From: Crenarchaeota archaeon 13_1_40CM_3_52_10
GTDB taxonomy: Archaea > Thermoproteota > Bathyarchaeia > 40CM-2-53-6
Direction of reading: 5' to 3'
NCBI GenBank assembly: GCA_001918765.1
Contig: MNGO01000035.1
Span: 1-44,122, forward strand
Length of the DNA stretch: 44,122 nucleotides
The number at the start of each line of letters is the position of its first letter. Positions within the stretch are counted from its first letter, which is position 1. The translations under genes were made by a program, and so were the position numbers. This document shows, piece after piece, positions 3,887 through 20,951 of this stretch. The notes below the pieces were generated by a model, which did no database searches, was not told where the DNA came from, and saw only the letters and a list, made by a program, of their open reading frames with translations.

Positions 3887-5512
3887 TCAGGCTTTACCGT
3901 CAACTCTATCCTGCCCTACCCTTTCGCTCGTTCGGCGGCCTGGTGCTCCATAGCCACCGCCACCTGGCGTTATCACAGTCAGAACGTCACCACCATTTGC
4001 ACTAAGAGTTGTCTTCGAAGACAAACCGGTGATCCTGTTTCCTCGCACGATTGCGTATGCGCCTGGCGATCCCGATTTTCCTCTAGACAATCCCCAAGGT
4101 CGGTGGCGTTGTCGCTCGCCCATTAGTGAGATGGTAGATCTTTCAGCCAACACCTCTGTGTCTCTCCTGATGCCTAGTCCTCCTCGGAACTTTCCTCGTC
4201 CACCGGAGCCTCGTACCAGCTCGTACTTCTTGACCCTCAGGGGATATGCTGATTCCAGTGCTTCTATGGGGGTGTTCAATGTATTCGTCATGTGACTATG
4301 AATTCCGTCAACACCATCTTTGCTGTAACGCGCACCGAATCCGCCGGCGATGGTCTCATAGTAGGTGAAGTATTTCCCGGTCCGCGGGTCAATTCCTCCG
4401 ATGGTTACGTTGTTCATTGTTCCTTGACAAGCAGCACATACTCTCTCTGGAATGATACTAGAGAAGGCCTTGAGGGTCACGTCAACAATTCGCGTCGACG
4501 TTTCCACGTTTCCACCTGCCACTGGCGCAGGCGGCTCCGCGTTGACAATGGTCCCGGATGGTGCTGTAACCTGTATGGGTTTGAAGCAGCCCGCGTTTGC
4601 TGGAATCGAGGGATCCGTCACACATCTTACCACGTAGTAGACGGCTGAGAGAGTGACGCTGTAAACGGCGTTCAAGGGTCCCTGAACCTGTTTCGCAGAA
4701 CCGGAAAACTCGAACGCTATGGATTGTTGATTAATTGTGACCTTGACCCTGACCGGGATATCGGTCGCACCAAAACCATCGTCGTCGAGATAGTCAACCG
4801 CTGATGATGACTTCCTCGGCAGTTCACGAATCTTCTTGAGCATCAGCTCCTCGGAGTAGTCGATCAATTGATCCATCCCACTCTCAACTGTTGAAGCTCT
4901 CGATTTCTTCAGTAACTCTCCCAAACGTTTCGCGCCGACAAGATTCGCGGCCCGTTGCGCTCTGAGGTCTCCCAGTCTCTCATCAGGGGTCCGGACATTG
5001 GACAGTACAAAGTCCAGGATTTGCCGGTTCGGTTTGCCCCCCGTCCAGATCTTGATAGGAGTAATACGGATTCCTTCCTGATTAACGTCTCTCGATAGCG
5101 CGGACATGCTCCCTGGCGCGACGCCTCCGACATCAGAGTGGTGAGCGCGGTTAGCCGCAAACCCAACCAACTTTTCCTTGAAGAACATCGGAGAGACCAT
5201 GGTAATGTCGGGGAGATGTGTCCCACCCCGGTATGGATCGTTGATGATGATGTCGTCACCTTCAGCTAGATCATCTTTGAACTCTTTCTGAACCGCCTGC
5301 ACTGAGTGTGGCATAGCGCCGAGATGGACTGGAATGTGCTCTGCTTGAGCGACTAGCTGTCCCGACTTGTTGAAGAGAGCGCAGGAGTAATCTCGCCTCT
5401 CCTTGATGTTGGGAGAGAAGCTCGATTTTCGGAGAACCACTCCCATATCTTCCGCAATGGAGATGAGTGAGTTCTTGAGAATCTCGAATGATATTGGGTC
5501 AAGATTCTCCAT
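3887..5512 (-). CDS. hyuB: Hydantoinase B / oxoprolinase family protein
   Basis: The ORF is 541 aa. It has the typical N-terminus DPISFEILKNSLISIAEDMG, and length and composition match HyuB/OplB-type subunits. Confidence 0.9.
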   Translation of the reverse strand: MENLDPISFEILKNSLISIAEDMGVVLRKSSFSPNIKERRDYSCALFNKSGQLVAQAEHIPVHLGAMPHSVQAVQKEFKDDLAEGDDIIINDPYRGGTHLPDITMVSPMFFKEKLVGFAANRAHHSDVGGVAPGSMSALSRDVNQEGIRITPIKIWTGGKPNRQILDFVLSNVRTPDERLGDLRAQRAANLVGAKRLGELLKKSRASTVESGMDQLIDYSEELMLKKIRELPRKSSSAVDYLDDDGFGATDIPVRVKVTINQQSIAFEFSGSAKQVQGPLNAVYSVTLSAVYYVVRCVTDPSIPANAGCFKPIQVTAPSGTIVNAEPPAPVAGGNVETSTRIVDVTLKAFSSIIPERVCAACQGTMNNVTIGGIDPRTGKYFTYYETIAGGFGARYSKDGVDGIHSHMTNTLNTPIEALESAYPLRVKKYELVRGSGGRGKFRGGLGIRRDTEVLAERSTISLMGERQRHRPWGLSRGKSGSPGAYAIVRGNRITGLSSKTTLSANGGDVLTVITPGGGGYGAPGRRTSERVGQDRVDGKA

Positions 5513-6986: not shown

Positions 6987-7030
6987 ATGGCGAAACCGAT
7001 TCTACCTATTAGAGTATGAAATGGAAAATT

Positions 7031-7305
7031 CCAAAATCGCCCAATATCAGCCCTGATCTCGATTCTGAGACATGCGCAATATTTCGCCCTAGAATCGTTC
7101 GGGAATGGCTGACGATCTCCCGACGATTTGCCCTGCCTTCAACGCCGTATCATGCCCTGAATCGCGAGACTCGCCCATTATCCCTGCCAGACGGGAAATC
7201 TCCCTTGGACGAGGGAGGGTCTTAGCGATCGCGTCTCGCGACGCAAGAGTGGTTTCTCCGGGGCTTTCCAAACCCATCGTTTCCTCGCGTAAGAAACGTA
7301 AAGAC
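7031..7305 (-). repeat. Non-coding paralogous element, copy A (minus orientation)
   Basis: The reverse complement aligns collinearly with 20580-20836. Conserved blocks are 7238-7260 vs 20604-20626 (22/23), 7153-7200 vs 20667-20714 (40/48), 7084-7099 vs 20768-20783 (15/16) and 7031-7071 vs 20796-20836 (34/41). No convincing ORF is present. Confidence 0.7.
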
Positions 7306-7393
7306 GAGTATTCTGAAAGGTCCCGAAAAATGGGGCTTTGGATTTCCAGAGCCCTGAGGCCCTGGTTTCTTTTCTTTGGCTAGCTCGTACAGT

Positions 7394-7885
7394 TTAGTTG
7401 TTGGTGGCGTGCTTGGTGGCCGGTGAGCCATCGAGCGCGTGAACCAGGTTGACGACAACTCGCAGCGTTGGAAGCAGGGCGATCAAGAGGAATATCAATG
7501 GATAAGCCCAAGGCGCGCTGGTAAAGTACTGGCTGGCAATACCGTTGCTTACGCTGTAGAGTATGACGATGGCGATGATCTGGAAGATGTACGCTAGCAA
7601 CGGAACCCAAGTCTGGTAGTTCTTGTACGCGTCCGAGACCGCCTTCGAGAGCTGCGTTCCGAACTTGAAGACGATGAAAGCAACGACAAGCCCGATCATG
7701 AACACTACAATGTTCGCGATCGAAATGGTACTGCCTGTGATATTCTGGCTGATCCCTGGAAAGCCGAGCACAACCGCCTCGATAATCACCAGTACAATAA
7801 CGCCCGCTATCAACCGTATGAATGCTGGCATGACTGGAGTAAATGCTCCCCACGTGCTGTTCGAGCCGCTTGATGTATTGGTCAT
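7394..7885 (-). CDS. Small polytopic membrane protein, unknown function
   Basis: The track ORF runs to 8026, but its first 47 codons overlap the hyuA 3' end and are W/R-rich. ATG 7885 (MTNTSSGSNSTWGAF...) precedes 4 clear hydrophobic helices. Confidence 0.6.
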   Translation of the reverse strand: MTNTSSGSNSTWGAFTPVMPAFIRLIAGVIVLVIIEAVVLGFPGISQNITGSTISIANIVVFMIGLVVAFIVFKFGTQLSKAVSDAYKNYQTWVPLLAYIFQIIAIVILYSVSNGIASQYFTSAPWAYPLIFLLIALLPTLRVVVNLVHALDGSPATKHATNN

Positions 7886-7985
7886 ATTTTCTTCACTGTT
7901 AGAGCAACTTACCAAGTGTAATCCGATATTGCCTTGTTGAAACCAGCACCACCAGACACGAGTAACAGCCCTCTTCATCCGAGCG

Positions 7986-10064
7986 TCATATCGCAATAGA
8001 AACCGATCCATTCCGGTCAACCACATATCGTGCTCGAGGCGGAATCACCAGGGTTGAATCGTAATCCTCAATCACACACGGTCCCTTTCCCTTGGAACCA
8101 GGAAAAAGGCTGTTCCGCTGAAAGACTTGACACCCGATACCACGTCCACCCATAAACCACACTCTTCTCCTCATCACAGGACCCTTCTCTCGTGCAAAAA
8201 TACCGGTTACTCCAGAGACGGTTCCAGCTTTTCCTCTACAGTAGCTGCGAACATTCACAATCTCAACAGACCTGTCCGATTGAGAGTAGCCATATTGCGT
8301 TTGATGTCTCTGGTGAAAGTCTCTAACAGCAGATCGAACCACCTTTCCAGTAATAATCCCGTTCCGTAGAGGAACTGATAATTCGTAAGATTGTCCCTGA
8401 TAACGCATATCCAAGAATCTCTGATAAGTGACATCCTTCTCCTCAACTCCTTCTCTTCCGAGCAGACCTCTCGCTCTCTCCTTCATCCCACGAAAGATCT
8501 TCTCAAGCTCTTTGACGCTCGCACTCTCTGCGTCTCTCAGTACGGTCTGGACGGAATCATGCAATGGTTCCGCAAGAAGGAGACCGAGGCTCGACAACAG
8601 CCCTGCAGCCGGGGGCACAACAACCCTCTCCATCTCTAGTTGTTCAGCAACCTCACAGGCAAACATCGGTCCCGCCCCACCAAACGCCACCAGAACCATT
8701 TCGCGCGGGTCGAGACCCTTTTCCACCGTCGCCGCCCGCAACGCCTCCGCAATCCTCGCGACAGCAATTCTCAAAACACCGATAGCTCCGTTGATCACAT
8801 TCATTCGAAGCGGCTTCGCAACACGCTCAGCAACAGCCCTGTAAGCAAGTCGTGGGCTCAATCGCAGATCCCCGCCAAGAAGAAGGCTAGAGCTCAACCG
8901 GCCAAGAACAAGAGACGCATCCGTCAGCGTCGGCAACATCCCACCCTTCCCATAACAAGCCGGACCCGGCAGCGCTCCAGCACTCTGAGGCCCAACATGC
9001 AAAACACGAGCATCGTCAACCCAGGCAACGCTCCCACCGCCGATTCCAACCTCGACGAGGTCCAGGACCGGAAACCTGACAGGGTATCCTGATCCTTCAA
9101 CTCGCCTCGTTCCATGCAAACGTCCCCCAACTTCGTACTCGTTGGTCACCTCGAACCCGTGGCCAGACCAGACTCCTGCCTTCGACGTGGTCCCGCCGAC
9201 GTCAAGAGAGACGATACTTTGAGATCCGCGAGAATAGAACTTGGACGCCACCGCCCCAGCAACGGGTCCTGATTCTATGAGGCGAGCTGGCTCAAGGGCT
9301 GCTTGGCGAGAGAGCACAGTCCCACTATTCGACTGCATTACAAACAGAGGCGCATGGACCCCAAGTTTCTCCAGCCCGTGTTCGAGTTTTTCCAGATAGT
9401 CCGAGAATAACGGCTGCAGACACGCATTAACGACTGTAGTGCTAGTCCTCTCGTACTCTCGAAACTCTGGAAGAAGCTCCGAAGACAAAGACAACTTCGC
9501 GCTAGGATGCTCTCTCCTGAAAATCTTCCCTAGCTTCTTCTCATGTCTCGGGTTCGCGTAGGAGTGAAGAAGGCAGAGAGCAACCGTTCCGATACCGAGT
9601 CTTCGTATCCTTCTCGCAACCTGAGTAGCCTGCGACGTGTCAAGCGGTTCCAGGATCCTTCCGTCATACGTGATTCTCTCACGGACCTCGAACCTGTATC
9701 GCCTCGGGACCAGTGGAGGCAGCCGCTCGACCTGAAGATTGTACAGCTCCGGCCTGTTCTGGCGCCCGATCTCAAGAACATCTCGAAAACCCGAGGTCGT
9801 GATGAGAGCGGCCCTAGGAATATTTCCCGTCAGAAGGGCGTTTGAGGCGAGCGTAGTCGCATGAATAACAACTCTGACAAGACCAGAATCAACCTCCTCT
9901 TTTTCCAACAATCTTCGAACAGCATCAAGCGCTCCTACAGATGGATCTGTCGGCGTGGTCAGGACTTTGATCTTCCAGACCCCACGCTTCTCGTCTGCGG
10001 CCACGAGATCCGTAAAGGTCCCACCGATATCGATTCCAATTCTAATCGTATTCGTCGCAACCAT
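7986..10064 (-). CDS. hyuA: Hydantoinase A / oxoprolinase family protein
   Basis: The ORF is 692 aa. ASKHA-fold phosphate motifs are IGIDIGGTFTDLV and SLDVGGTTSKAG, and the length is typical of HyuA. Confidence 0.9.
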   Translation of the reverse strand: MVATNTIRIGIDIGGTFTDLVAADEKRGVWKIKVLTTPTDPSVGALDAVRRLLEKEEVDSGLVRVVIHATTLASNALLTGNIPRAALITTSGFRDVLEIGRQNRPELYNLQVERLPPLVPRRYRFEVRERITYDGRILEPLDTSQATQVARRIRRLGIGTVALCLLHSYANPRHEKKLGKIFRREHPSAKLSLSSELLPEFREYERTSTTVVNACLQPLFSDYLEKLEHGLEKLGVHAPLFVMQSNSGTVLSRQAALEPARLIESGPVAGAVASKFYSRGSQSIVSLDVGGTTSKAGVWSGHGFEVTNEYEVGGRLHGTRRVEGSGYPVRFPVLDLVEVGIGGGSVAWVDDARVLHVGPQSAGALPGPACYGKGGMLPTLTDASLVLGRLSSSLLLGGDLRLSPRLAYRAVAERVAKPLRMNVINGAIGVLRIAVARIAEALRAATVEKGLDPREMVLVAFGGAGPMFACEVAEQLEMERVVVPPAAGLLSSLGLLLAEPLHDSVQTVLRDAESASVKELEKIFRGMKERARGLLGREGVEEKDVTYQRFLDMRYQGQSYELSVPLRNGIITGKVVRSAVRDFHQRHQTQYGYSQSDRSVEIVNVRSYCRGKAGTVSGVTGIFAREKGPVMRRRVWFMGGRGIGCQVFQRNSLFPGSKGKGPCVIEDYDSTLVIPPRARYVVDRNGSVSIAI

Positions 10065-10202
10065 TTCCTTTCCGTCTTCATCCGAATCTCACACACTTCC
10101 TGCTGTGTTCGAGATCCGACACGTCACGTTCGGCTATCTCCAACTCTTAATATCGTTCCAGTTCATCCGAAGACGCCGATTGACTTCAGTAGCTAGATTA
10201 CA

Positions 10203-11354
10203 ATGACAATCCACGTTCTCCTGACAGCAGACAACCACCTAGATCCATCCGCAGTCCAGTACGGTCCCAAGCGGTTCGAACGCAAGCGCGACTTCCAGCG
10301 TTGCTTCGAAATTCTAGTCAACTTTGCCTTGGAGAATAAGCCCGAAATTCTTCTAATCGGCGGAGATTTCTACGATGGCATTCTGCCCGGCAACCCCACC
10401 AGGGCGTTTGTAGCAGAACAATTCAAGCGTCTACACGAGAAGAACATCAAAACCATTCTTGTAAGCGGCCACCACGATACCCCACGCAGCGCAGAGCAAG
10501 GCGCATCACCCCTCGCCGTTCACGCAAGGTCCGGACATGTATACTTCATACAAGAACAACATCCAACGAACAAGAAGTTCAATTTCGGAAGCGAAACCGT
10601 CAACGTGACAGGGATGAGCCTCAACCCATCCCTACCCGTCGAAGCAGATCCACTCGTCGGTCACGAGATCAAGCAAGACGGAGACGTCAACATTTTCCTG
10701 ACACATTATCCGATCGAACGCTTCGACGGCTACTTTGGACAAGAAGTCCACATCCAGAAATCATCCATCCCCAGGAACCTCCAACTCTTCGCCTCAGGCC
10801 ACCTGCACAATCATCAAAGAAAAACCATCAACGGGACACCAGTCATCTATCCCGGAAGCACCGAGCGAGCTTCGTTCAACGAAGAAGGCGAGACGAAAGG
10901 GTTCGTATGGCTCGAACTGGACAAGTCCGGAATAGTCCAGCAAGAGTTCCATCCAACGCCCGCTCGGCCCATGGAAACCCTTGAGTTCCGAGTGGCTGGT
11001 GAGGGAAGCCTCACACGACAAATAGAGGAAGCCTTGGAGAAGAGAATAGACGACGAGAAGATACTTCGCGTAAAAGTCTCCGGAAAAGTCACACTGAATC
11101 AGCTCTCTACCTACAAGCGATCCGCAATCTACACCTACGCAGAGGACAAGTTCTTCCACATTGAATTCGATGAAGAACAGCTCAACGTTCTTACGATGGT
11201 CCCGTTGGAGTCGCTTCCGAAGACTACTCCGCTCCAGGAGCTAGACCGGACATTCCAGAACCTGCTAACAAAAGCAGGCGACCAGGATAGACCGCTTGTT
11301 CAAGAAGCCTGGAAGCTCACAATTGCAAAGCTTCAGGAGGAGGGAGTCGACTGA
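10203..11354 (+). CDS. mre11: Mre11/SbcD-type metallophosphoesterase nuclease
   Basis: The ORF is 383 aa. Phosphoesterase motifs appear in the Mre11 order: ADNH (I), GGDFYD (II), SGHHD (III, atypical), FLTHYP (IV), SGHLH (V), IYPGS. Its stop TGA overlaps the start region of the downstream rad50-like gene. Confidence 0.85.
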   Translation: MTIHVLLTADNHLDPSAVQYGPKRFERKRDFQRCFEILVNFALENKPEILLIGGDFYDGILPGNPTRAFVAEQFKRLHEKNIKTILVSGHHDTPRSAEQGASPLAVHARSGHVYFIQEQHPTNKKFNFGSETVNVTGMSLNPSLPVEADPLVGHEIKQDGDVNIFLTHYPIERFDGYFGQEVHIQKSSIPRNLQLFASGHLHNHQRKTINGTPVIYPGSTERASFNEEGETKGFVWLELDKSGIVQQEFHPTPARPMETLEFRVAGEGSLTRQIEEALEKRIDDEKILRVKVSGKVTLNQLSTYKRSAIYTYAEDKFFHIEFDEEQLNVLTMVPLESLPKTTPLQELDRTFQNLLTKAGDQDRPLVQEAWKLTIAKLQEEGVD

Positions 11355-13717
11355 AACTACTAAGTCTCTATGCTCACAATTTCAAGAAACTGAAATTCTC
11401 CCAACCACTACCCTTCACGGAGGGCATCTCGCTAATCACAGGATTGAACGAGAGCGGAAAATCCACCATCCTCGACGCGATCCTCTTCGCCCTCTTCGGC
11501 CGCATGATACGGCCCAGCCAGAAACCTAGCAACGAAGAAATCCTCACCTACGGAACCGGCGAAGCCCAGGTAAAACTCGAATTCGCCATCGGCGACCTCA
11601 AGTACCGAATCGTAAGAGAGATTCACAAGACCAGACCAAACCGCGCACAGCTCTATGAGCTTGGGCCGAACGGTCGACAAAAGACAATCGCAACAACCGT
11701 AAACGACACAACAAGCGAAGTCGAACGGCTCCTAGGAGGCATTACCTACAACGAAATTGTCGCAAGTAGCGTCGTCGCACAGAAAGATCTGGAACGACTA
11801 ATCAAACAAAGACTCGACGACCGAAGAAAAGTTGTCAACGTGTTCCTGAACCTGGACAGTTTCAACAGAGTGCAGGACCAGTTTGATACGGAGAGAGCCA
11901 GAATCGAAGGCACAACCCGGAATCCGGGACAGCTAACAGTTGAACGCGAGCGGCTCCAATCGCTTCAAGAACAAATGAAAAGGTACAAGGAAGCCGAGAC
12001 CCAACTCTCAACCCTGGCACAAAAAATCGAGAAGCTCAGGCTCGAACTAGTGGACATGGAGAAAAAGTTCGCGGCCACAGATTCTCTCCACAGGACCCTT
12101 AACAAGTACGATGAAGCAGTGAAACTCCAAAAATCTCTTCAGCAAGAGATTCAGGACAAGACGCGTCTTGCAGAGAACCTCCAACGACAACTATCCGGGA
12201 TTTCATCCCAACGAGAAGAACTGGAGAAAGCCCAATTGGAACTCGAACAGTTCTCTGGACTTTCCGAAATAGAATCCCAACTCGCCCAGGCATCGAATAT
12301 GCTTGAGGAATTTCAATACGCCGAAATCCGCAGAATCCAGTTGGAGGAATCCAAGAATAATCTATGTGCTAAAATTGCACAGAAGACAAAAGACGTCTCG
12401 GGTCTTGGAAATCCGAAACCGTTGGACTCCAAGCCAAGAAGGGTCTGGACATATCTCATTTCAACCTCAGCTCTAGGCGCCGGAGCCATTCTATCCTTCT
12501 TCCTCGGTCTCCCACAAGTCGCAGTTGCGTTCGGCTCCCTGGCTATAGTCTCCCTCCTCTTACTGACACGACAGATTGTCTCGCTTTCGCAACAAGCTAG
12601 CAGCTCGAGATACGAGCAGGAACAGTTAGCCAGCCTGCAGCTCGTCCGCTCATGGGAGAATGAGCTGGCGGAGAACCAACAAAACCTGACCAAAATCCAG
12701 CAGGACCTTGCTGAAAGGTCCGAGAGTCTTCTGGGAACACTGAGTTCAATCACACGATACTCAGCCACGGTCGGAGCGGCAAACGACCCTAAGACTGCTT
12801 TCGAGACCATATCTTCATTGTTCGACAACGACAAGCAAACACATCAGTCTCTCGAAGAGAAGGTCAGATTACTAGGCCAACAACTGAGAGAGGAACCCCA
12901 AATCAAAGAACGCCTCGACCTTATCCAAGGCGAAATCAAACAGGTCGAAAAGAAATTCAGCACGGCTCAGTCGCCGGATCTCCCAGCAGGTCTATCCTTC
13001 TCCGAGACGCTTCTTGAAGAGACCGCCGAAGTCAGAGATACGCTAAAGGAATCCGTTTCGAGAAATAGGGCACAGATCGAAGACTCGATTTCCCGACAGC
13101 TCGAACTACGCCAGCTACTAGAGGAGAACAGCAGTCTTGATGATCAAGTTCAGACCCAAATGAAGAAAGTGATGCTCCTAGAGAAGGACTGCGCGGTCGT
13201 CAAGCTGTCTGTCAAAGGATTGGAGCAAACATCGGAGTCCTTACGTAATCGTGTCAAGCCCCAGGTCGAACGCTACATGGGGCTCATCCTTCCCGTAATA
13301 ACTTCCGGAAGATACAAGGCCGTGCAACTCGACGAAGACTACACTGTCAGAGTCTTTGATCCAGAGGCTGGAGAGTTCAAGTCCAAGGAAGTTTTCTCGG
13401 GAGGTACAGAAGACCAGGTCTTACTGGCAATGAGGCTGGCCTTCGCTCTTGCCTTGATACCTCAAGCCAAAGGCCATAATCCCGAATTCCTATTCCTCGA
13501 CGAGCCTCTCGGCAGCTCGGACAGAGTTCGTCGAGAAGGAATTCTCACACTACTCCACCAAGAACTGTCACAGAATTTCAAACAAATCTTCCTCATTAGC
13601 CACGTAGGAGATCTTGAAGCGGAGGCGGACACCATAATACAGATGGACAACGGTATGGTTCGCGAGGTCATTGGAAGAAAATCTCAACCACGACAGCCAG
13701 TCGAGGTTGCCGCGTGA
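11351..13717 (+). CDS. rad50: Rad50/SbcC-type SMC-like ABC ATPase with a mid-protein transmembrane hairpin instead of a zinc hook
   Basis: Motifs are Walker A GLNESGKST, signature FSGGTEDQ, Walker B FLFLDEPLGSSD and H-loop FLISHV. Long heptad-rich arms are present. The conserved N-terminus xKLLSLYAHNFKKL starts at CTG 11351. The track start, TTG 11444, lies inside the P-loop strand and cannot be the true start. Confidence 0.8.
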   Translation: MKLLSLYAHNFKKLKFSQPLPFTEGISLITGLNESGKSTILDAILFALFGRMIRPSQKPSNEEILTYGTGEAQVKLEFAIGDLKYRIVREIHKTRPNRAQLYELGPNGRQKTIATTVNDTTSEVERLLGGITYNEIVASSVVAQKDLERLIKQRLDDRRKVVNVFLNLDSFNRVQDQFDTERARIEGTTRNPGQLTVERERLQSLQEQMKRYKEAETQLSTLAQKIEKLRLELVDMEKKFAATDSLHRTLNKYDEAVKLQKSLQQEIQDKTRLAENLQRQLSGISSQREELEKAQLELEQFSGLSEIESQLAQASNMLEEFQYAEIRRIQLEESKNNLCAKIAQKTKDVSGLGNPKPLDSKPRRVWTYLISTSALGAGAILSFFLGLPQVAVAFGSLAIVSLLLLTRQIVSLSQQASSSRYEQEQLASLQLVRSWENELAENQQNLTKIQQDLAERSESLLGTLSSITRYSATVGAANDPKTAFETISSLFDNDKQTHQSLEEKVRLLGQQLREEPQIKERLDLIQGEIKQVEKKFSTAQSPDLPAGLSFSETLLEETAEVRDTLKESVSRNRAQIEDSISRQLELRQLLEENSSLDDQVQTQMKKVMLLEKDCAVVKLSVKGLEQTSESLRNRVKPQVERYMGLILPVITSGRYKAVQLDEDYTVRVFDPEAGEFKSKEVFSGGTEDQVLLAMRLAFALALIPQAKGHNPEFLFLDEPLGSSDRVRREGILTLLHQELSQNFKQIFLISHVGDLEAEADTIIQMDNGMVREVIGRKSQPRQPVEVAA
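12443..12580 (+). other. Predicted two-helix transmembrane hairpin at the Rad50 coiled-coil apex
   Basis: The sequence is KPRR-VWTYLISTSALGAGAILSFFLGL-PQ-VAVAFGSLAIVSLLLLT-RQ. This covers residues ~365-410 of ~788, the midpoint of the protein. The protein has only two isolated Cys and no CxxC. Confidence 0.65.
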
Positions 13718-13738
13718 GACTTTCTCAGGTCGTTTTTG

Positions 13739-14125
13739 CTAGCAAATATACGCTTGAACTATAGGCGCCTGCAAGGCCTTCAAAGCAAGTAAGAGAGTTT
13801 GTTCAGCAGTAGTTCTTACATCGCCGATTTCTGAGAGGAGGGTCGTCCAAAGCATGTAGATGCTACCTTCATTCTCGGTCGCCTGAAAGAATCCCAAACT
13901 TTCGAGGGACGATGTTATTTGGTGGAAGCGGTCTGATCTTGACGAAAGACCAACGGTAATCGTCCAGTCGCCTAGCTTGTCAAGGTTGACCCCTACAATT
14001 GCATCAGAGAAAGCAATCGAAAGGCTAGAACCGCGCTTCAATGAAGCATCAACCATTGTTGCCACTGATCTTGGATCTACCAAACCGGGATCGAGTCTGG
14101 ACTGGGGCCTCTGGTTTTCTGTCAT
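13739..14125 (-). CDS. Hypothetical protein
   Basis: The ORF is 128 aa with ATG start and TAG stop, convergent with rad50. No motif was recognised. Confidence 0.4.
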   Translation of the reverse strand: MTENQRPQSRLDPGLVDPRSVATMVDASLKRGSSLSIAFSDAIVGVNLDKLGDWTITVGLSSRSDRFHQITSSLESLGFFQATENEGSIYMLWTTLLSEIGDVRTTAEQTLLLALKALQAPIVQAYIC

Positions 14126-14211
14126 AGGCTCAGCCCACCATCGATATCGGGCTTAACAATCGTGTTACTTAGCAGGCTGCCGCAAGGGAAATCGCTTGGG
14201 TTTCTCGGGTG

Positions 14212-14218
14212 TTTATAT
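14212..14218 (+). promoter_or_regulatory. TATA-like box upstream of dph2
   Basis: TTTATAT lies about 43 nt upstream of ATG 14261 in an otherwise GC-balanced spacer. Confidence 0.3.
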
Positions 14219-14260
14219 CGGGCTCTACCCTTTTGGTAGCTTCTCGCCGGCGAATTTGAC

Positions 14261-15268
14261 ATGTCCATGTTTGACCTTGACGAGGATAAGCTCCTAGCTG
14301 AGATAACGGGGAGAGGTGCACGAAGGATACTGATCCAGCTACCCGATGGTCTCAAGAACGAGGGGACCCGGCTTGCAAGTCTCGTCCGAGGGAAGACGGG
14401 CGCGGACGTGTTTGTCTCCGCTGTGCCTGCCTGGGGAGCCTGCGACTTGTCTTTGGATGCCGCTAACCGCCTGAAAGCTGACCTGCTAGTCCATTACGGG
14501 CATAACGAATTCCTGCGAGACAGTTCCAATGGAGTCCCGGTCGTATATGTCCCTGCAAAGAGCAATCACGAGGTCATTCCTGTCGTAGAGAAGGCGGTTT
14601 CCGCCCTTCAAGGCAGGAACATTGGACTAGCCACCACAGTTCAGCATTTGCACAAGTTTCCTGAGGCGATAAAACTTCTAGAGGCGAGAGGGTTCAGTGT
14701 TCTTGTTCCAGGGCGCGGTCCATGGTCACACGAGACAGGTCAGGTCCTTGGTTGTGACTATTTTGGACTCAAGAGGATTCAATCTCAGGTCGACTCATTT
14801 CTGATCCTAGGCAGCTACTTCCACGGTCTCGGTGCAGCTCTTTCTGTAGAAAAACCGACAATTCTCGCAGACCCCTACGACGGAACAGTCAAAGTTCTAG
14901 ATCAGGATAGGGACCGGATTATTAGGCAGAGATATGCAATGGTGGACAAAGCTAAGAGAGCCAGCAATTTCGGAATAATCGTCTCAACTAAGCCAGGACA
15001 GAGCAACCCACAAATTGCTCTCTCAATTCTCAAGCAGATCGAGGAAGCAGGCAAGAAAGCGGTCATCCTCTACGCGGATGAGATTGTACCGCAGAAACTG
15101 CTCGACTTCACCGACATCGATGTCTTTGTCGATACTGCTTGTCCCCGCCTTGCGCTAGACGATCCGGAAAGATTTCCAAAGCCAATCATCACAAGGGACG
15201 AGATCATGGTTGCCATCGGTGCTTGGACCTGGGAGCAGCTTTTGGAGCGCGGACTGGTCCGCCTATAA
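14261..15268 (+). CDS. dph2: Diphthamide biosynthesis radical-SAM enzyme Dph2 (2-(3-amino-3-carboxypropyl)histidine synthase)
   Basis: The ORF is 335 aa. Motifs are RRILIQLPDGLK, WGACD, LVHYGH and DTACPRLALDD, which include the three-Cys cluster ligands typical of archaeal Dph2. Confidence 0.85.
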   Translation: MSMFDLDEDKLLAEITGRGARRILIQLPDGLKNEGTRLASLVRGKTGADVFVSAVPAWGACDLSLDAANRLKADLLVHYGHNEFLRDSSNGVPVVYVPAKSNHEVIPVVEKAVSALQGRNIGLATTVQHLHKFPEAIKLLEARGFSVLVPGRGPWSHETGQVLGCDYFGLKRIQSQVDSFLILGSYFHGLGAALSVEKPTILADPYDGTVKVLDQDRDRIIRQRYAMVDKAKRASNFGIIVSTKPGQSNPQIALSILKQIEEAGKKAVILYADEIVPQKLLDFTDIDVFVDTACPRLALDDPERFPKPIITRDEIMVAIGAWTWEQLLERGLVRL

Positions 15269-15883
15269 TTGGCAAAAGAACAAACAGTCTCTAAACGCCA
15301 ACTGGAAATCCAGCTAGGAAAGCTGAAGATCCTCGAGACCCCCAAACTGGGACTCGAACAATACCCAGTCTCTTCCGAAGTAGCGGCTGAACTGCTCTAC
15401 ATGGCCGGTTTTGAGCATCGCGATCTGCATGGTGAAACAATCGACCTCGGAACCGGCACTGGACGTCTAGCGATCGGTGCGGTCATAATGGGGTCTATGA
15501 AAGTCGTTGGCGTAGATATCGATGAGAGGTCCATCGCTTTAGCGAGGGAGAATGCGATCGCTGCGGGAGTCCAAGTCGAATGGGTTGTATCTGATGTCGA
15601 CGAAGTCGTGGGAAAGTATGACACGGTGATCATGAATCCTCCATATGGGACGCGGTCTCCCCATCTTGATGTCCGATTTCTTAAGCGAGCATTCGAACTT
15701 GCCCCCATTTCGTATTCTATTCACAAGAGTTCGACTAGAGACTATCTTAGGGGCGTTATTGCAAAGAAAAATCGGAAGGTTGACGACGTGCGTACCATGA
15801 GTCTAAACATTCCTCATCTCTTCCCATTTCATCACAAGAAGTGGGAGAATGTAAAGGTCGACCTTTATCGGATAGTATCCTAG
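15269..15883 (+). CDS. METTL5-like / COG2263-type SAM-dependent N6-adenine methyltransferase
   Basis: The ORF is 204 aa. The TTG start directly abuts the dph2 TAA. Motif I is DLGTGTGRLAIGA and motif IV is VIMNPPYG. Confidence 0.75.
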   Translation: MAKEQTVSKRQLEIQLGKLKILETPKLGLEQYPVSSEVAAELLYMAGFEHRDLHGETIDLGTGTGRLAIGAVIMGSMKVVGVDIDERSIALARENAIAAGVQVEWVVSDVDEVVGKYDTVIMNPPYGTRSPHLDVRFLKRAFELAPISYSIHKSSTRDYLRGVIAKKNRKVDDVRTMSLNIPHLFPFHHKKWENVKVDLYRIVS

Positions 15884-18800
15884 CCCCCTTGCTTCTTCTC
15901 CTCACTTGAATTGGATGGTGTTGTCGGGGGTTGTTCTTGGTTTCGGACTAGTGGTTTGAGGGGTGTCTCCTTTGTGGCGGGAAGTCCTACTGAGGGCAAA
16001 CTCGACGGTGGATTGGAAACGGTCGTAATTACCGGTATTTTCGTTCGTCTCGGACGAAGTTTGCCCAACTGCCGGCCCACTTTGCGAAGCAAGGCGGGTT
16101 GGTCTGACCCTCCCGGCCTGGGTTTGCCACGGAGAAGTATGTAGGTGGTCAGAAATGATGTCACTCCAAGTATTACTCCAGTCCAGACGTTGATCCCAGC
16201 TAGAAGCCTTGAGCTCGTCTGGTTGACGAAGCCCTGAAGATACTGGTTGTTGATGTAGTCGAGATAGAGTACTAGTCCGAGCCCTACGGTCGCAAAGGTT
16301 TCGACTGTTACGGCGAGTTTTGTCGTCATTGGAATGGGAGGTATGAGTTTTTCTTCTGGAGTGACTGGAACTCTTCTTATCCGTCCTGGAGCCCACCAGT
16401 TGAGACGTTTCATGTGTCTCATTATCGAAGGAACTAGGTAGACTCGGGTGAGGGTCGCGTCGAGAATAACGACTACGAAGAATGCGAGTCCGAGCTGTTG
16501 GAGCATAGGTATTTGGGAGAGCATCATGGTTCCGAAGGCACCTGCTGTTACCAGACCGGTGGCTGTGATTATGCCTCCAGTGCGTTCTACCGCGGTTTCG
16601 ATGGCCTCGTCATCTTTCGCTCCGCCGACCACGTACTCCCTGATCCTAGTTACTAGGAATATGTCATAGTCAAGTCCCAATCCAAGCATTATCACAAGCA
16701 GCATGATAGGCAGTATCCAGATCAGTTCCATTCCAATGTATGTGTGGAAGATGTAGATTACCGCGGCCATCGCCCAAGAAATGCTGAGAAGTATCGTGAA
16801 GATGAGCCGCAAAGGAGTAAAGATCGAGCCCAAGGCGATCATCAAAACTACGAAGACTCCCACAAGGACGAGCGCTGTCATGTTGAAGTAATCAGCTGCG
16901 CTTGAGTTGGCAAGATCTGCAACGGAAGCAGTTTCTCCCCCGACAAGCATGGTAGATGCAGCGAGCAATTTGTCGTTGCCCTGCAGACTATTGATGTTCT
17001 GTCTGATTTTCGTGAGGGTGACGATGGCCTGATCTGTGTAGGGCTCGTTGGACAGGTTAGCCCAGACCATTGCCGACTTCCCGTCGCTCCCGAGGAAGGG
17101 CTTCATGCTCCTGATCATTGCTTGCTGTTGTGCAGTATTGAGCTGGTTGAACGTTGAGTATGGGATCGGGTCACCTGAAGGATGTGTAAGCCCGTAGACT
17201 TTCGATACGCCGGAGATCGACAGTGTCGAGTTCTCAGCGTAGGATAGAGATCGCAACGCGGTGACGTTGATCCAGTTGTCAGTTGCGAGCCGGACTGGTG
17301 TCTGCACAATCGTGTAGGTTGGGGTTATGGTGCCAGGTCCGAATCCCTGGACCATGCTATTGTAGCCGGCCCGGCTCTCGAGCGAGTTTGGAACCTGGCT
17401 TATGAGGTCGTGGCTTGTCTGTGAGGAAAGGACTGTGCTAGTGGCTGGTAGACTGACGGCCAATGCCACGATAAGGATTAGCTTCGAGTGCTTTGCTGTG
17501 AATCTTGCGGCACGTGCATAGTAGCTGCTTCCTTTGGCTTTCTTCTTTCTCCAAAGACCTAGTCCGCCGGGCCAGAATATCTTGTCCCCGAACATGGACA
17601 GAATTGCCGGCACTAGCGTAAGGGCGACTAGTAGTGCTATGGATATGCCCATCATCACAGCAATCCCGATAGAACGGAGCATTCCAAAGCCGGCAATGGC
17701 CAGGCTTCCGAATGCTATGACGACGGTTGCTCCACTCGTGGCGATGCTCTCGCCTGCCCATGTCACTGCTCGCTCAACCGCATCCTTCTTTCCTCTTCCC
17801 ATCCGTCTCTCCTCAGCGTATCTGCTAACGAGAAATATGCAATAGTCCGATCCTGCCCCGAACATGGCGACGGGCAAGAGTGTCAGGATCAGGAAGTGTA
17901 CGCTGGTGAACCAAGTGCCGATTACGTAGACTAGGCCGAAAGCTATGCCCACGGATATTCCGATGGCTGAAACAGGGATTAGTGGAGCTGCAAGTGACGC
18001 GAAAAATAGGCCGACGATGACCATTATTAGAATGATGGTGATTGGGTCAATCCGTTCAACATCTCTGATCGATTCTGTTTCAATGTCATAGTTGAACGCT
18101 GGAGCGCCTGTAACGTAGACTAGGAGGTTTGTGTTGCTGAAGACGTTCGCGTGTTGAACGTCGGTTCTAATGCTAGCGATGCTGTTTTTCGGGTCAGGTC
18201 CGGTTGTCTTGAAGTCGAGTATGACGAGCATGGTGTCGTTGGAGCCTGAGACGAACTGGGTGTAGACGTCCTTGCTCGGCTGGACGGGGTAGCTGTTGAT
18301 GTTATAGTTTCGAAGGAGCGTCCCTGCGAGGCTTGTAAAATCCCCGAAACTCGCAGAAGCACCCAGGGAATAAATCTCACCGATGATAAACGTCTGGGTC
18401 GGAGTTGCGTTGACCGCTCCCGAGAAGGTGTCAACAACGAAGGTCTGAATTGCCGCAGGGTCGTTCCAATAGTTATTGGGACATGTATTAGGGCAGAAAT
18501 TGAACAGGTTGAAGAATGCAGCGGAATCGACAAAGAGCGCGCGGGTTATGGGGTCTGTTATGCTGGACTGGAAGAACGGTAGAGTGATGTTGTAGTACGC
18601 TGGCTGGGCCACCAGTAGCGGGCTTCCTTTGGTCACGTTTTGGGCTCGGGCTAGTGGTGGCGCGACTATCGTGAGCTGTGTTTGGGTGTAGGTGGAGGCG
18701 GTGAATGTTTTGTTCCATGACTGGTAGAACAGGTTCTCGTACGCGAGAGCGAGGGTCTGGTTTGCTTGGGGGGTTTGCGAGGATATGATTGGCCATGCGG

Positions 18801-19350
18801 ACTGGTTGGCTTTTTGGTTGTAGGAGGCGACCTGTGACTGGTTTATGTTAAAGGGTCCTGAGTTTACTTGGGTTGTCCACTGGTTTACGTAGATTGCAGG
18901 TATGCCGAATTCGAGAGACGTAGCAAGGCTCGTCAGGTTCTTCTCTCGGTAGAGCTGGAGGTGAACCACGGTAGTATAGCCGACTAGTAGCTGGTAGTAG
19001 ATGTCGTAGATGCTTGTGACGTTGCTGAGGTTTGTAATTGTTCGGTCGTTATGGAGGGTCTTGTTGAATGTTAGAGTGAAGTCGCGAACGTCGTTGCCTC
19101 TCACATCCATTGATGTGATTACAACGACGACGCTGTTGCCCTGGCTGATGCTGAATTGTTTGCTGACGATGGATTGAGCGATGCTGGACTCTGATGTCTT
19201 GGGGTTGTAAGCTGTCTCCGTGTAGACGATGACGCTCTGAACTTGTAGTATGGCTGGGACGCTCAGCGCGAGGGCTACTAGCCAGATTACGAAGACCGCC
19301 CGGTTGTGCTTGATGATGGTACGGGCTAGCCTTGTGAAGAGCAAATCCAT
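15880..19350 (-). CDS. MMPL / RND-superfamily exporter with a large extracytoplasmic domain
   Basis: The ORF is 1156 aa. It has two TM bundles, each with the MMPL signature (GSDYCIFLVSRYAEE and GLDYDIFLVTRIREY). The N-terminal ~400-aa loop is N/Q/T/S-rich with many N-x-S/T sequons. Its stop overlaps the convergent methyltransferase stop as CTAG. Confidence 0.85.
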   Translation of the reverse strand: MDLLFTRLARTIIKHNRAVFVIWLVALALSVPAILQVQSVIVYTETAYNPKTSESSIAQSIVSKQFSISQGNSVVVVITSMDVRGNDVRDFTLTFNKTLHNDRTITNLSNVTSIYDIYYQLLVGYTTVVHLQLYREKNLTSLATSLEFGIPAIYVNQWTTQVNSGPFNINQSQVASYNQKANQSAWPIISSQTPQANQTLALAYENLFYQSWNKTFTASTYTQTQLTIVAPPLARAQNVTKGSPLLVAQPAYYNITLPFFQSSITDPITRALFVDSAAFFNLFNFCPNTCPNNYWNDPAAIQTFVVDTFSGAVNATPTQTFIIGEIYSLGASASFGDFTSLAGTLLRNYNINSYPVQPSKDVYTQFVSGSNDTMLVILDFKTTGPDPKNSIASIRTDVQHANVFSNTNLLVYVTGAPAFNYDIETESIRDVERIDPITIILIMVIVGLFFASLAAPLIPVSAIGISVGIAFGLVYVIGTWFTSVHFLILTLLPVAMFGAGSDYCIFLVSRYAEERRMGRGKKDAVERAVTWAGESIATSGATVVIAFGSLAIAGFGMLRSIGIAVMMGISIALLVALTLVPAILSMFGDKIFWPGGLGLWRKKKAKGSSYYARAARFTAKHSKLILIVALAVSLPATSTVLSSQTSHDLISQVPNSLESRAGYNSMVQGFGPGTITPTYTIVQTPVRLATDNWINVTALRSLSYAENSTLSISGVSKVYGLTHPSGDPIPYSTFNQLNTAQQQAMIRSMKPFLGSDGKSAMVWANLSNEPYTDQAIVTLTKIRQNINSLQGNDKLLAASTMLVGGETASVADLANSSAADYFNMTALVLVGVFVVLMIALGSIFTPLRLIFTILLSISWAMAAVIYIFHTYIGMELIWILPIMLLVIMLGLGLDYDIFLVTRIREYVVGGAKDDEAIETAVERTGGIITATGLVTAGAFGTMMLSQIPMLQQLGLAFFVVVILDATLTRVYLVPSIMRHMKRLNWWAPGRIRRVPVTPEEKLIPPIPMTTKLAVTVETFATVGLGLVLYLDYINNQYLQGFVNQTSSRLLAGINVWTGVILGVTSFLTTYILLRGKPRPGGSDQPALLRKVGRQLGKLRPRRTKIPVITTVSNPPSSLPSVGLPATKETPLKPLVRNQEQPPTTPSNSSEEKKQGG

Positions 19351-19454
19351 TCCCTCTCTGAGGGTGTGAAACGAGCGGGGAACGGGCTGAGCGTCATAAA
19401 GCCGTACTGTAACCCTGAACTCTGAGCCGGGGCTAATACGGGGCGTTGAGTATG

Positions 19455-19463
19455 TCTATATGG
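19455..19463 (+). promoter_or_regulatory. TATA-like box upstream of the CN-hydrolase gene
   Basis: TCTATATGG lies about 40 nt upstream of ATG 19499. Confidence 0.3.
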
Positions 19464-19498
19464 CCAAACTGAGCGGAATCTAGCGTAGGCGAGCGTGG

Positions 19499-20326
19499 AT
19501 GAAGCCGGTCAGCCTGTTACTAGCCCAAACTGGTCCCAAAGTCGGGAACAAGGAGCGAAACCTGAGGCAGATCTCGGAACAGGCCGCCAAGGCTCGGAAG
19601 AAGAACGTTGACTTGTTGATCTTTCCGGAGTTGCACCTGACGGGGTATACGATGCGGGATGAAGTCTCCCATTTGGCAGAGTCGATTCCGGGTCCCAGCA
19701 CGGGGAAGGTTCAGAGCATCGCGAAGGAGCACGGTGTTCATATCATCTTCGGCATGCCCGAGGAAAGCGAGGTCAAGGGAGTAATTCACAACACTGCGGT
19801 GTTTGTTGGCCCGAAGGGCTTGATTGGGAGGTACCGGAAAATCCATCTTCCGACGCATTCTGTTTTCGAGGAGCGTCGCTATTATCGTCCGGGACAAGAA
19901 GCGCCGGTGTTCAAGACGGATATCGGAACTATCGCTTTGAACATCTGTTATGATCTCTATTTTCCCGAGCTGACTCGTCTGCAGGCTTTGCAGGGTGCAC
20001 AGTTGGTCGTCTGTATTTCCGCGAGTCCCGGGTTGCGGCGGAGGTTTTTCGAGGGGTTCTGTTTGAGCCGGGCGATGGAGAACGCTGTCTATCTCGCCTA
20101 TGTTAACCGGGTTGGTATTGAGGAGGGTTTGCAGTTCTGGGGTGGAAGCAGGGTGATAGCGCCTAATGGTTCGGTCCTAGCGCAGTGTAAGTATGATGTG
20201 GAGGAGTTTCAGATCTGCAAGGTGGACCTAGACGAGGTTTCTCGGGCTAGGGCGTTCATTCCGACAATAAAGGACCTAGAGCCGAGCCTCTTCGACCAAC
20301 TGAGAACCAAGAGCAGGGAAGCCTAG
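19499..20326 (+). CDS. Carbon-nitrogen hydrolase (nitrilase superfamily), paralogue 1
   Basis: The ORF is 275 aa. The Glu-Lys-Cys triad contexts are FPELHLTGY, YRKIHLP and ICYDLYFPE. Confidence 0.85.
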   Translation: MKPVSLLLAQTGPKVGNKERNLRQISEQAAKARKKNVDLLIFPELHLTGYTMRDEVSHLAESIPGPSTGKVQSIAKEHGVHIIFGMPEESEVKGVIHNTAVFVGPKGLIGRYRKIHLPTHSVFEERRYYRPGQEAPVFKTDIGTIALNICYDLYFPELTRLQALQGAQLVVCISASPGLRRRFFEGFCLSRAMENAVYLAYVNRVGIEEGLQFWGGSRVIAPNGSVLAQCKYDVEEFQICKVDLDEVSRARAFIPTIKDLEPSLFDQLRTKSREA

Positions 20327-20473
20327 AATCGGGTTTCCGTGGAGGGTGGGCCACGAGACTCAAGTAGGCCCCCCCGGGGGGATATTCGCGATACGTGTTT
20401 CAGAAAGTGTTTCAACAGATGATTGCAGAAGTTGTTTCTTGATAGCGGTTCAATAACCGTTTTCAAAACATGA

Positions 20474-20487
20474 TTCCATGCATGGAA
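20474..20487. repeat. Perfect 14-bp palindrome TTCCATGCATGGAA inside an A/T-rich tract
   Basis: Read directly from the sequence. It is flanked by GTGTTTCA direct repeats (20395-20402 and 20407-20414) and a CGGTT-CAAT-AACCG hairpin (20446-20459). Confidence 0.6.
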
Positions 20488-20579
20488 AAATTGCTTGAAA
20501 GAATTAGTAGAAAGGAAGGGCCGTAATCAAGCGTGATCTTTTCTAGCAAAGAGAATGTGATATATGGAGGACGAGTGGG

Positions 20580-20836
20580 ATTTCTTTACATTCGCCACGC
20601 GTCCGGAGGAACCACTCTTGCGTCGCCAGATGCTCTGCTCTTATCCCCCCCTCTTTTTCTAGAGAAGATTTACTGTCTGGCAATGATAATGGGCGAATAT
20701 CGTGATTTAGGGCAGGGTCCGGGCTTTGATGAAAAGGAAAAAGACGGGAAATCTAGGCCGACTCTCAAACGATTTTAGGGCGAGTTCGGACCCGGGTCCC
20801 AGATTCGAGAACAGGGCTGATAACGGGCGATTTTCC
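20580..20836 (+). repeat. Non-coding paralogous element, copy B (plus orientation)
   Basis: It aligns with the reverse complement of 7031-7305 (block coordinates are given under copy A). It contains three GAT(A/T)(A/T)n(G)GGGCGA sub-repeats and the palindrome GGACCCGGGTCC (20788-20799). Confidence 0.7.
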
Positions 20837-20951
20837 TATTTCGTATCGGTTCAGTACTAGATAGCAAGCTTGAACAAAATGAGATAATAGGGAATCTCCA
20901 GCATCCTTTCAGCCCGTTTCTCGCAACAACCCTCATTAGCACCCTCAACTA

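Follow-up and report, generated by a model that had tools for sequence, protein, structure and literature searches.

Two copies of an intergenic element with a core of about 230 nt lie in opposite orientation on a 44,122-nt stretch of DNA (contig MNGO01000035.1, positions 1-44,122, in its whole length here called the window) of the archaeon Crenarchaeota archaeon 13_1_40CM_3_52_10. They are not a private duplication, but two members of an undescribed, high-copy, non-coding family in soil Bathyarchaeia. The family is new within a known kind, the dispersed conserved intergenic elements or putative non-coding RNAs (ncRNAs), and it is real and selected. We give a probability of about one half to the explanation that it is a sense-strand RNA element, or a small RNA (sRNA) family, with boxes that would be recognised by protein. 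The non-coding genome of Bathyarchaeia, uncultured archaea that abound in soils and sediments, is almost undescribed.

The two copies and their family

A sequence-only reading of the window had described a collinear inverted pair of about 260 nt, and repeat search, alignment and a comparison of block patterns with shuffles all bear this out. The reverse complement of 7026-7305 (copy A) is collinear with 20580-20841 (copy B), and the repeat search of the window returned inverted arms at 7026-7201/20666-20841 (176 nt, 71% complementary) and at 7231-7261/20603-20633 (31 nt, 90%). Pairwise alignment with MAFFT gives a mean column identity of 78%, with near-identical blocks alternating with variable stretches of equal length. 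Exact blocks of 17-23 nt, which shuffled sequence never yields, are common to both copies, the longest exact match being 22-23 nt, and four block patterns occur exactly twice each in the window, once per copy, where shuffles expect 0.00-0.16 occurrences. The insertion of about 20 nt that had been noticed in copy A is real; it measures 23 nt in the alignment (approximately 7263-7285) and lies 5' of the core as defined by the family. Position profiles, built on 131 flanks at the 5' end and 162 at the 3' end, define the core boundaries. They place the core of copy A (~230 nt, TCCGGAnnAAC-CACTC to GGGCGATTTT) at 7033-7262 on the minus strand (nhmmer profile match 7267-7025, score 193) and that of copy B (~233 nt) at 20602-20834 on the plus strand (match 20600-20840, score 206). 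Copy B ends approximately 110-117 nt before the start of rpl10e (20952).

A 19-base pattern for the second conserved block (block 2), TCTGGCANNGATAATGGGCGA, was scanned in one genome per species, covering 185,579 species and 596 Gb. It has 38 sites, 37 of which fall into about ten metagenome-assembled genomes (MAGs) titled Candidatus Bathyarchaeota, Bathyarchaeia or "Crenarchaeota archaeon 13_1_40CM", with at most 10 exact matches per MAG. The sole non-archaeal match, in a Victivallales MAG (L010), has no similarity beyond the pattern and was set aside as chance, a few such matches being expected for 19 bases in 596 Gb. A pattern for the 3' block, ATCAGGGCTGAWAAYGGGCGA, has more than 120 soil-metagenome contigs among the matches listed. 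An nhmmer profile run over 167 fetched stretches (1.1 Mb) detected at least 227 copies, so that the further homologues on which the sequence-only reading had made its finding depend are plentiful. Clustering of the 166 unique, full-length copies gives 131 groups at 90% identity and 62 groups at 80%, and their gene contexts number at least 60; crude subtype labels, which left 93 copies untyped, were dropped. Beyond the match that seeded each stretch there are about 23 sites per Mb. Together with the 2 sites in the 44 kb of the window, this density leads us to an estimate of tens of sites per genome. At ~23-45 sites per Mb of ~240 nt, the family would take up approximately 0.5-1% of each genome. 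It may break short-read assemblies of these genomes, in which case copy counts based on MAGs would be underestimates.

The other worry of the sequence-only reading, that the element might be the degraded remnant of a known gene, found no support in searches of Rfam, plasmids, phages and viral contigs. Rfam 15 has no match in the whole window at gathering thresholds, nor is there a tRNA in the window, and with E values up to 10 the two copies return only a chance match to SCARNA6 (14 bits, where 68 is the gathering score). The family also has no match among viral contigs, plasmids and phages, and a search of a literature library found no paper linking Bathyarchaeia to such an element.

Conserved blocks and variable spacers

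Read on its putative sense strand, the element starts with a CCACTC(T/A)TGCG(T/A)CGCGAG block, which is followed by a C-run, a T-run and an A-rich stretch, and then by CTGTCTGGCAnnGATAATGGGCGA. Its 3' part consists of a candidate hairpin rich in G.U pairs, a variable middle that exists in several unrelated versions, CCCAGAT-TCGAG-ATCAGGG, and CTGATAATGGGCGATTT; the termini read TCCGGAnnAACCACTC and GGGCGATTT. On the 5' side the element has a gradual limit near -11 relative to CACTC (TCCGGAnnAAC, from 131 upstream flanks of single copies), and in these upstream flanks there is no conserved AT-rich box or target motif, the information content beyond -12 being at most 0.13 bit. The 3' limit is sharp: the element ends with the motif GGGCGATTY, which reads GGGCGA-T-T-Y-Y in the 162 downstream flanks of single copies, and the sequence after it is random. 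Because the same box occurs in the CTGTCTGGCAnnGATAATGGGCGA region and in CTGATAATGGGCGATTT, TGATAAyGGGCGA is present twice in direct orientation, 134 nt apart in each of the copies A and B. The motif GATnnn(n)GGGC is found five times per copy, also in direct orientation; a scan of the window gives 16 matches (5.4 expected), 6 of which fall within copies A and B. A constant distance separates CTGTCTGG from the terminal GGGCGA, with medians of 157 nt in the window family (family 1) and 159.5 nt in a sister family (family 2), the intervening sequence differing.

The 5' block CCACTCTTGCGTCGCCAG (20612-20629, plus strand, in copy B; 7235-7252, minus strand, in copy A) is an imperfect palindrome, TCTYGCG-N-CGCRAGA. 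Its positions are 75-95% conserved in the 166 unique copies, none of which was found with this block, and in one subfamily it is complementary to the segment after the first box. The stretch CCCCCC-TTTT..AGAAnATTT (20640-20672, plus; approximately 7195-7225, minus) lies just 5' of CTGTCTGG. In a profile anchored on CTGTCTGG, C reaches 0.6-0.9 at -25 to -20 and T 0.7-0.8 at -18 to -15, and the stretch could be terminator-like or promoter-like. Block 2 with the first box, CTGTCTGGCAatGATAATGGGCGA (20673-20696, plus; 7171-7194, minus), is exact in both copies, and GUCUGG is conserved to 0.89-0.94 and GGGCGA to 0.75-0.98 in 124 copies that were ascertained via the other block. The candidate hairpin uUAGGGC/GCUUUGA, rich in G.U, is predicted by RNAalifold at 20703-20729 (plus; approximately 7139-7165, minus). 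The terminal module, made up of the terminal hairpin CCCAGAU-UCGAG-AnCAGGG and the terminal box CTGATAAyGGGCGATTTT (20797-20834, plus; 7033-7070, minus), is the most conserved part and common to the sister family, with most positions at 0.8-1.0 in the 42 copies found via block 2. Across blocks that were not used for ascertainment, core positions are mostly 0.75-0.98 conserved.

The sister family has about 28 full copies of ~240 nt each in the same fetched DNA. It shares CCACTCTYGC, TTTCTGTCTGG and the entire 3'-terminal module with family 1, differs in the middle and has no first box at all; its hairpin GACGGGC/GCUUGUC is homologous to the G.U-rich candidate hairpin of family 1. Of 24 family-2 copies, 10 have a TATA-like hexamer that matches the promoter boxes of this organism. 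It stands at -30 to -21 relative to CTGTCTG and is found at no other place between -70 and +60. Members include L101, L052, L088, L077, L059 and other loci (alignment A3), the middle of which reads GGGCTTGTTTCTTCGAGACGGGCTTGTTATCGGCTTGTCTGG...GATCCCCGTGGATTCCCCTAGGGATC. Here GAGACGGGC is able to pair with either of two similar flanking segments, making alternative hairpins possible, and about half of the members contain AAAAGTTATAGGA, which looks much like an archaeal BRE/TATA sequence.

The conservation is not protein-coding

Both short open reading frames (ORFs) that had been pointed out in the two copies exist, at 7089-7277 on the minus strand (62 codons) and from 20533, or 20575, to 20778 on the plus strand (67 codons from 20575), and gene callers have called both in metagenome contigs. 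A family of small proteins of 60-70 residues would explain why the two ORFs have the same orientation within the element, the same frame, the same TAG end and the common motifs TTLAS.DA, LA.IMGE.RD.G and RF*, and why the only indel inside them, of 3 nt, keeps the frame. The wider family speaks clearly against it. Among 159 copies, no frame through block 2 stays open for 60 codons in as many as half; the best one does so in 45%, and extends to at least 80 codons in 14%. Most family members have the ORF frame of copies A and B broken or shifted, and many have a stop in the frame through block 2 after 13-50 codons. Which of the three frames the N-terminal part uses differs from copy to copy, since the C- and T-runs vary by 1-2 nt. 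Conservation in the 159 copies is without 3-nt periodicity, and the best-conserved module follows the stop codon. We consider a small protein family effectively refuted. The elements are non-coding, as had been argued from the two copies alone, and the hypothetical proteins of 62 and 67 residues in public contigs are mis-annotations.

Genomic placement and persistence

The 242 proteins encoded next to the element fall into 147 clusters, and no gene recurs beside it. The 121 unique contexts with called genes on both sides comprise 45 tandem co-oriented, 19 tandem anti-oriented, 39 convergent and 18 divergent ones, showing that the element tends to follow genes at their 3' side and to read in the same direction as they do. 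An opposite-strand 3' neighbour is present at 87 of 158 sites, and copy A faces the 3' end of a gene for a PKD-domain protein. A riboswitch or 5' leader would be expected 5' of the genes that it regulates and co-oriented with them, which the 87 opposite-strand neighbours and the 39 convergent contexts do not bear out. Tandem pairs occupy 33 of 188 sites, and six orthologous junctions have one copy in some genomes and two in others. None of the 156 junction types that recur in the fetched loci is empty in one genome and occupied in another.

The family stays at orthologous sites in species with near-saturated synonymous sites. At one orthologous junction in five genomes, the flanking genes have a third-codon identity of 0.57-0.80 and the elements an identity of 0.50-0.76, with blocks intact, while element type and copy number vary between the genomes. 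The element is also present in the spacer between the CN-hydrolase gene and rpl10e, the site of copy B, in relatives whose rpl10e identity is 91, 89 and 86%; where it is 80%, the element is not recognisable in a spacer that is unalignable and of similar length, and thus not a clean empty site. Spacers within the element drift at about the neutral rate and the blocks persist, which means that the blocks are selected. Since they are constant where neighbouring synonymous sites are saturated, either the cell or a resident enzyme reads them. There are also signs of exchange. L029 and L030 (both in MAG BA_3) and L033 (in BA_4) are different loci with almost identical cores and an unusual end, AATGGGGGATTTCTT, and L029 occupies the site orthologous to that of copy A with a different subtype. 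These near-identical cores and the subtype swap point to gene conversion, replacement or recent copying between dispersed copies.

Such exchange would also fit a non-autonomous mobile or selfish repeat of the REP/BIME, BOX or IS200/IS605-derived PATE type, spread by an enzyme encoded elsewhere and now mostly immobile, with boxes kept by enzyme recognition and gene conversion. The dozens of dispersed sites in unrelated contexts, the frequent tandem pairs, the six junctions with one or two copies, the near-identical cores within BA_3 and the replacement of a copy at an ancestral site by another subtype are all in line with this idea. So is the combination of one sharp and one fuzzy end with the lack of terminal inverted repeats (TIRs) and target-site duplications (TSDs), as in HUH/Y1-type elements. 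Moreover, the two direct copies of one box per element recall IS608, which has similar left-end and right-end hairpins on the same strand, and REP-like repeats, too, typically lie 3' of genes. However, the polymorphic junctions all have one versus two copies and never none versus one, and sites persist between species whose synonymous divergence is saturated. In 97 single copies, the two flanks have in common a longest word of 4.66 nt on average, as compared with 4.64 +/- 0.10 nt in shuffled pairings, so that there is no TSD signal, with the proviso that the copies are old and duplications may have decayed. The repeat search detected no inverted repeat joining the ends of either window copy, and there is no conserved target motif at the 5' end. 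No gene for a transposase, reverse transcriptase, TnpA or TnpB recurs beside the ~180 sites in the inspected stretches of up to ~14 kb around the copies, and searches of viral contigs, plasmids and phages gave no match. Finally, a bias in orientation relative to genes would not follow from persistence alone. On balance, we regard a mobile repeat as rather unlikely.

Evidence for and against a proposed sense-strand RNA

An RNA made from the sense strand is hinted at by the bias in orientation, by the sharp 3' end with its TTY, by the constant span of 157-160 nt and by the TATA-like box in 10 of 24 family-2 copies; transcription, active strand, fold and protein partner are inferred. Such an RNA might stabilise or terminate transcripts, titrate a protein or act as a guide. 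The active RNA would be made from the strand reading CCACTC...CTGTCTGG...GGGCGATTT, either by read-through from a co-oriented upstream gene, as an element of the 3' untranslated region, or as a separate sRNA. In the latter case, the strongest candidate would be an RNA of ~155-165 nt that extends from about CUGUCUGG to GGGCGAUUU. The invariant boxes, namely GUCUGG, two UGAUAAUGGGCGA and five to seven GGGC motifs, would be recognised by one or more proteins or by a nucleic acid acting in trans, and would sit between short helices, rich in G.U and specific to subfamilies, and spacers that drift freely.

Several comparisons of paired positions are consistent with this model. Family 2 has a modest excess of covariation: its score is 0.170, compared with 0.148 for 500 shuffles, one of which scores as high, and changes on both sides affect 12 cells where 4.4 are expected (4 of 500 as high), although related sequences can beat shuffles without any structure. 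The terminal hairpin has 750 Watson-Crick cells, 135 G.U, 14 A.C and 94 others. In the candidate hairpin uUAGGGC/GCUUUGA 87% of cells are paired, and changes are almost exclusively from G.U to A.U or from C-G to U.G. The same two kinds make up nearly all changes in the candidate helices, which are present on the sense strand only. For the 5' block and the segment after the first box, a small 2x2 test found G-C in two independent loci, A-U in two, G.U in two and no A.C; the wider alignment has two non-standard cells.

A number of results weigh against this model, or at least against a strongly folded RNA. The folding z-scores of the two window copies are -0.94 and +2.02, and the mean over 34 copies is about -0.7 for the sense and -0.5 for the antisense strand. 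RNAalifold gives -5 kcal/mol for family 1, with no compensatory pairs, and averaged base-pair probabilities stay below 0.25. Neither family 1 nor the window-type subfamily has covariation beyond shuffles. In family 2, G.U accounts for about 30% of "paired" cells, a share that is expected from a strand rich in G and U and that weakens the helices. A 5' hairpin GAGTGG/CCACTC, seen in several copies, does no better than permutation. The 131 upstream flanks contain no conserved promoter, the internal TATA-like box is found in only 1 of 140 family-1 copies, and some copies, such as the first one at L080, are visibly decaying. We hold the RNA model at about one half because the hints in its favour are individually weak and G+U richness inflates apparent pairing. 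Among the candidate explanations that the sequence-only reading had listed, a structured ncRNA family is still the best, without being proven, since covariation is weak. Its palindromes fared less well: the two copies do carry different ones at the equivalent position, but a hairpin at that place is not family-wide, with 57% of cells paired and no advantage over shuffles or slid registers.

Other structures were tried and rejected. A hairpin closing the terminal box (AGAUC/GAUUU) is complementary, yet equals permutation (0.686 compared with 0.679). A long-range helix GUCUGG/CCAGAU has a few compensatory-looking cases, with GUCUGG nearly invariant and many partners uncompensated, and a hairpin CCUGUCU/AGACAGG around the first box exists in some subfamilies only and is absent from the window type. 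In a pseudoknot of the window-type subfamily, the helix between the 5' block and the post-box segment is 90% paired and that between AUUUnCUGUCU and AGACGGGAAAU only 60%, again without covariation beyond shuffles. The core CUGAUAA lacks the catalytic G of a hammerhead. A group II intron, a CRISPR and a replication origin were dropped in view of the small size, the missing Rfam match and an unfitting spacing and copy number.

The scarcity of covariation could also mean that the element acts as DNA. As a regulatory cassette, it would bind transcription factors or chromatin proteins with its palindrome TCTYGCG-N-CGCRAGA and its repeated GATnnnGGGC boxes, and use its AT-rich stretch as a promoter. 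Blocks that are conserved as sequence, the palindromic 5' block, the five direct GATnnn(n)GGGC motifs per element with their excess in the window, the TATA-like box at a fixed distance in part of family 2 and the position of copy B upstream of rpl10e, which is conserved in relatives, would all agree with such a role. Against it, more than half of the elements have an opposite-strand 3' neighbour, the 39 convergent contexts offer no promoter to serve, and the element prefers to lie downstream, not upstream, of genes. GATAATRGG is not a general promoter motif in the window, and the strand asymmetry of G.U over A.C would be meaningless on duplex DNA. We judge a DNA cassette to be improbable. The idea that GATAAT is the TATA box of this organism was dropped, as it is not enriched at gene starts and real promoters look like YTWATAT. 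Copy B does have a TATA-like box, GTGATATATGG (20557-20567, plus strand), about 35 nt 5' of its core. It resembles boxes upstream of dph2 (GTTTATATC), the CN-hydrolase gene (GTCTATATGG) and mre11 (CTTAATATC) in the window, and by this likeness is a possible private promoter of copy B; it is not a family feature, for the profile of upstream flanks has no conserved AT box.

The sense-strand RNA reading has a bolder version, to which we assign a low likelihood. The elements might constitute a new class of archaeal multi-copy RNAs of ~160-250 nt, with a common scaffold (GUCUGG, two UGAUAAUGGGCGA boxes and the terminal hairpin), a locus-specific central domain and a dedicated protein, which would act in trans, for example as guides or as an sRNA regulon under one factor binding at TCTYGCG-N-CGCRAGA. 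If so, the class would have a genomic weight comparable to that of the C/D sRNAs, without being related to them. Any RNA function would already place the family among the largest paralogous ncRNA families of any archaeon outside C/D sRNAs and tRNAs. If the elements are REP-like instead, they would be, to our knowledge, the first well-defined repeats of this type in the phylum and would point to a mobilising or binding protein. Either way, they provide an easily searched marker in these archaea.

Comparison with known systems

The closest analogues are bacterial REP/BIME and BOX repeats in terms of behaviour, and archaeal C/D sRNAs in terms of organisation. Like REP/BIME sequences, the Bathyarchaeia elements are extragenic and high in copy number, lie after gene 3' ends, form composite or tandem clusters, have no TIRs or TSDs and contain short recognition sequences. 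REP/BIME sequences are co-transcribed with the upstream gene, whereas read-through is only proposed for the element described here. REPs, which are ~35 nt long, are imperfect palindromes that form strong hairpins, have a GTAG-type tetranucleotide in front and are linked to RAYTs. The present element is ~240 nt long, without a strong palindrome or a conserved 5' flanking motif, and has no sequence similarity to REPs. No RAYT was seen near the copies, whole genomes not having been searched. With BOX of Streptococcus pneumoniae (boxA-boxB-boxC), the family has in common a modular intergenic layout of 100-300 nt, conserved boxes around a variable middle and the lack of coding function. BOX reaches more than 100 copies per genome, and a function at the RNA level is debated. 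It is, however, bacterial and unrelated in sequence, has a stable predicted fold and is thought to be MITE-like, whereas the Bathyarchaeia element has z-scores near zero and sites that are stable across species.

Miniature inverted-repeat transposable elements (MITEs), such as Correia of Neisseria and SM1-4 of Sulfolobus, are also short, non-autonomous, dispersed intergenic repeats. They are defined by TIRs and TSDs, neither of which was found here, and a MITE was rejected on this ground. IS200/IS605 PATEs and TnpB omega-RNA scaffolds come nearer, since they have no TIRs or TSDs, direct motifs on one strand, a sharp 3' boundary and a length of 150-400 nt. These elements differ by subterminal hairpins at both ends, insertion 3' of a fixed target of 4-5 nt and autonomous copies with TnpA/TnpB; in the Bathyarchaeia element, the second box is internal, there is no target motif, and TnpB and TnpA are missing beside the ~180 sites.

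Box C/D sRNAs resemble the family in having dozens of paralogous genes per archaeal genome, short boxes and variable spacers, with CUGA near the 3' end, a UGAU-containing box nearer the 5' end and a possible 5'/3' terminal stem. They are, however, 50-70 nt long and carry RUGAUGA and CUGA kink-turn boxes along with C'/D' boxes. The Bathyarchaeia box UGAUAAUGGGCGA, or (R)UGAUAA, has an A in place of the essential G of the C box and occurs twice; the unit is at least 148-160 nt long, family 2 lacks the first box, and Rfam has no snoRNA-type match. CsrB/RsmZ RNAs, finally, are a tentative analogy and share the many copies of a short motif (here GGGC, often GAUnnnGGGC), the variable spacers and the short hairpins. 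They have one or few genes per genome, GGA in hairpin loops and CsrA as partner, as opposed to dozens of loci for the Bathyarchaeia element.

The interval between the copies and neighbouring genes

The sequence-only reading had stressed that the two copies bracket a 13.3-kb segment and could mediate its inversion; neither the emphasis nor an inversion is supported. An inverted-repeat pair that mediates inversion, or that marks a composite mobile unit, has the window geometry as its only support. With ~75% identity and at most 22-23 exact bases in common, homologous inversion is improbable. By eye, in one alignment, copy B is close to L158 and copy A to L087, and either is more like copies at other loci than like its counterpart. 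Both junctions are in the window configuration in every independent contig recovered (3-4 for each) and in a relative with 91% rpl10e identity, and no contig was found that joins the gene for a 210-aa protein to the CN-hydrolase gene across a hybrid element. The copies are unrelated members of a dispersed family with housekeeping genes between them, among which are those for hydantoinase A, Mre11, Rad50, Dph2 and an MMPL transporter. We find an inversion pair hardly credible, and the inverted geometry is incidental. The genes around the copies encode the PKD-domain protein, the 210-aa protein, hydantoinase A, Mre11, Rad50, Dph2, an MMPL transporter, the CN hydrolase, rpl10e and a PEP-utilising enzyme.

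The 210-aa gene is immediately followed by a terminator-like signal on the minus strand, at 7326-7365, which leaves about 60 nt to copy A. The signal consists of a hairpin, CCAGGGCC-TCA-GGGCTCTGG (7346-7365), followed by CCCCATTTTT (T5 at 7326-7330), and L080 keeps the hairpin with changed bases (CCAGAGCC-CTTGA-GGCTCTGG). Because of its position, read-through into copy A would have to pass this putative terminator. A contig of JGI 3300002912 (L005) stops inside copy A, at the equivalent of window position ~7244, about 150 nt after the 210-aa gene. The CN-hydrolase/rpl10e spacer has two further features. A palindrome TTTCAAAACATGATTCCATGCATGGAAAAATTGCTTGAAA with perfect core TTCCATGCATGGAA (20461-20500), between the CN-hydrolase gene and copy B, does not belong to the family. 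Just before the rpl10e start (20920-20951; also L167 and L169), AACCCTCATTAGCACCC(T/C)CAAC is nearly identical at 86-91% rpl10e identity, which the rest of the spacer is not, and may represent a conserved leader or a site of ribosomal-protein autoregulation.

The 210-aa protein has no Pfam domain, and 41 nt of its ORF (7394-8026, minus strand) are shared with the end of the hydantoinase A gene (7986-10064, minus strand); the ORF and this same overlap are kept in several contigs. Hydantoinase B is encoded at 3887-5512, beyond the PKD-domain gene, so that the hyuA/hyuB pair is split.

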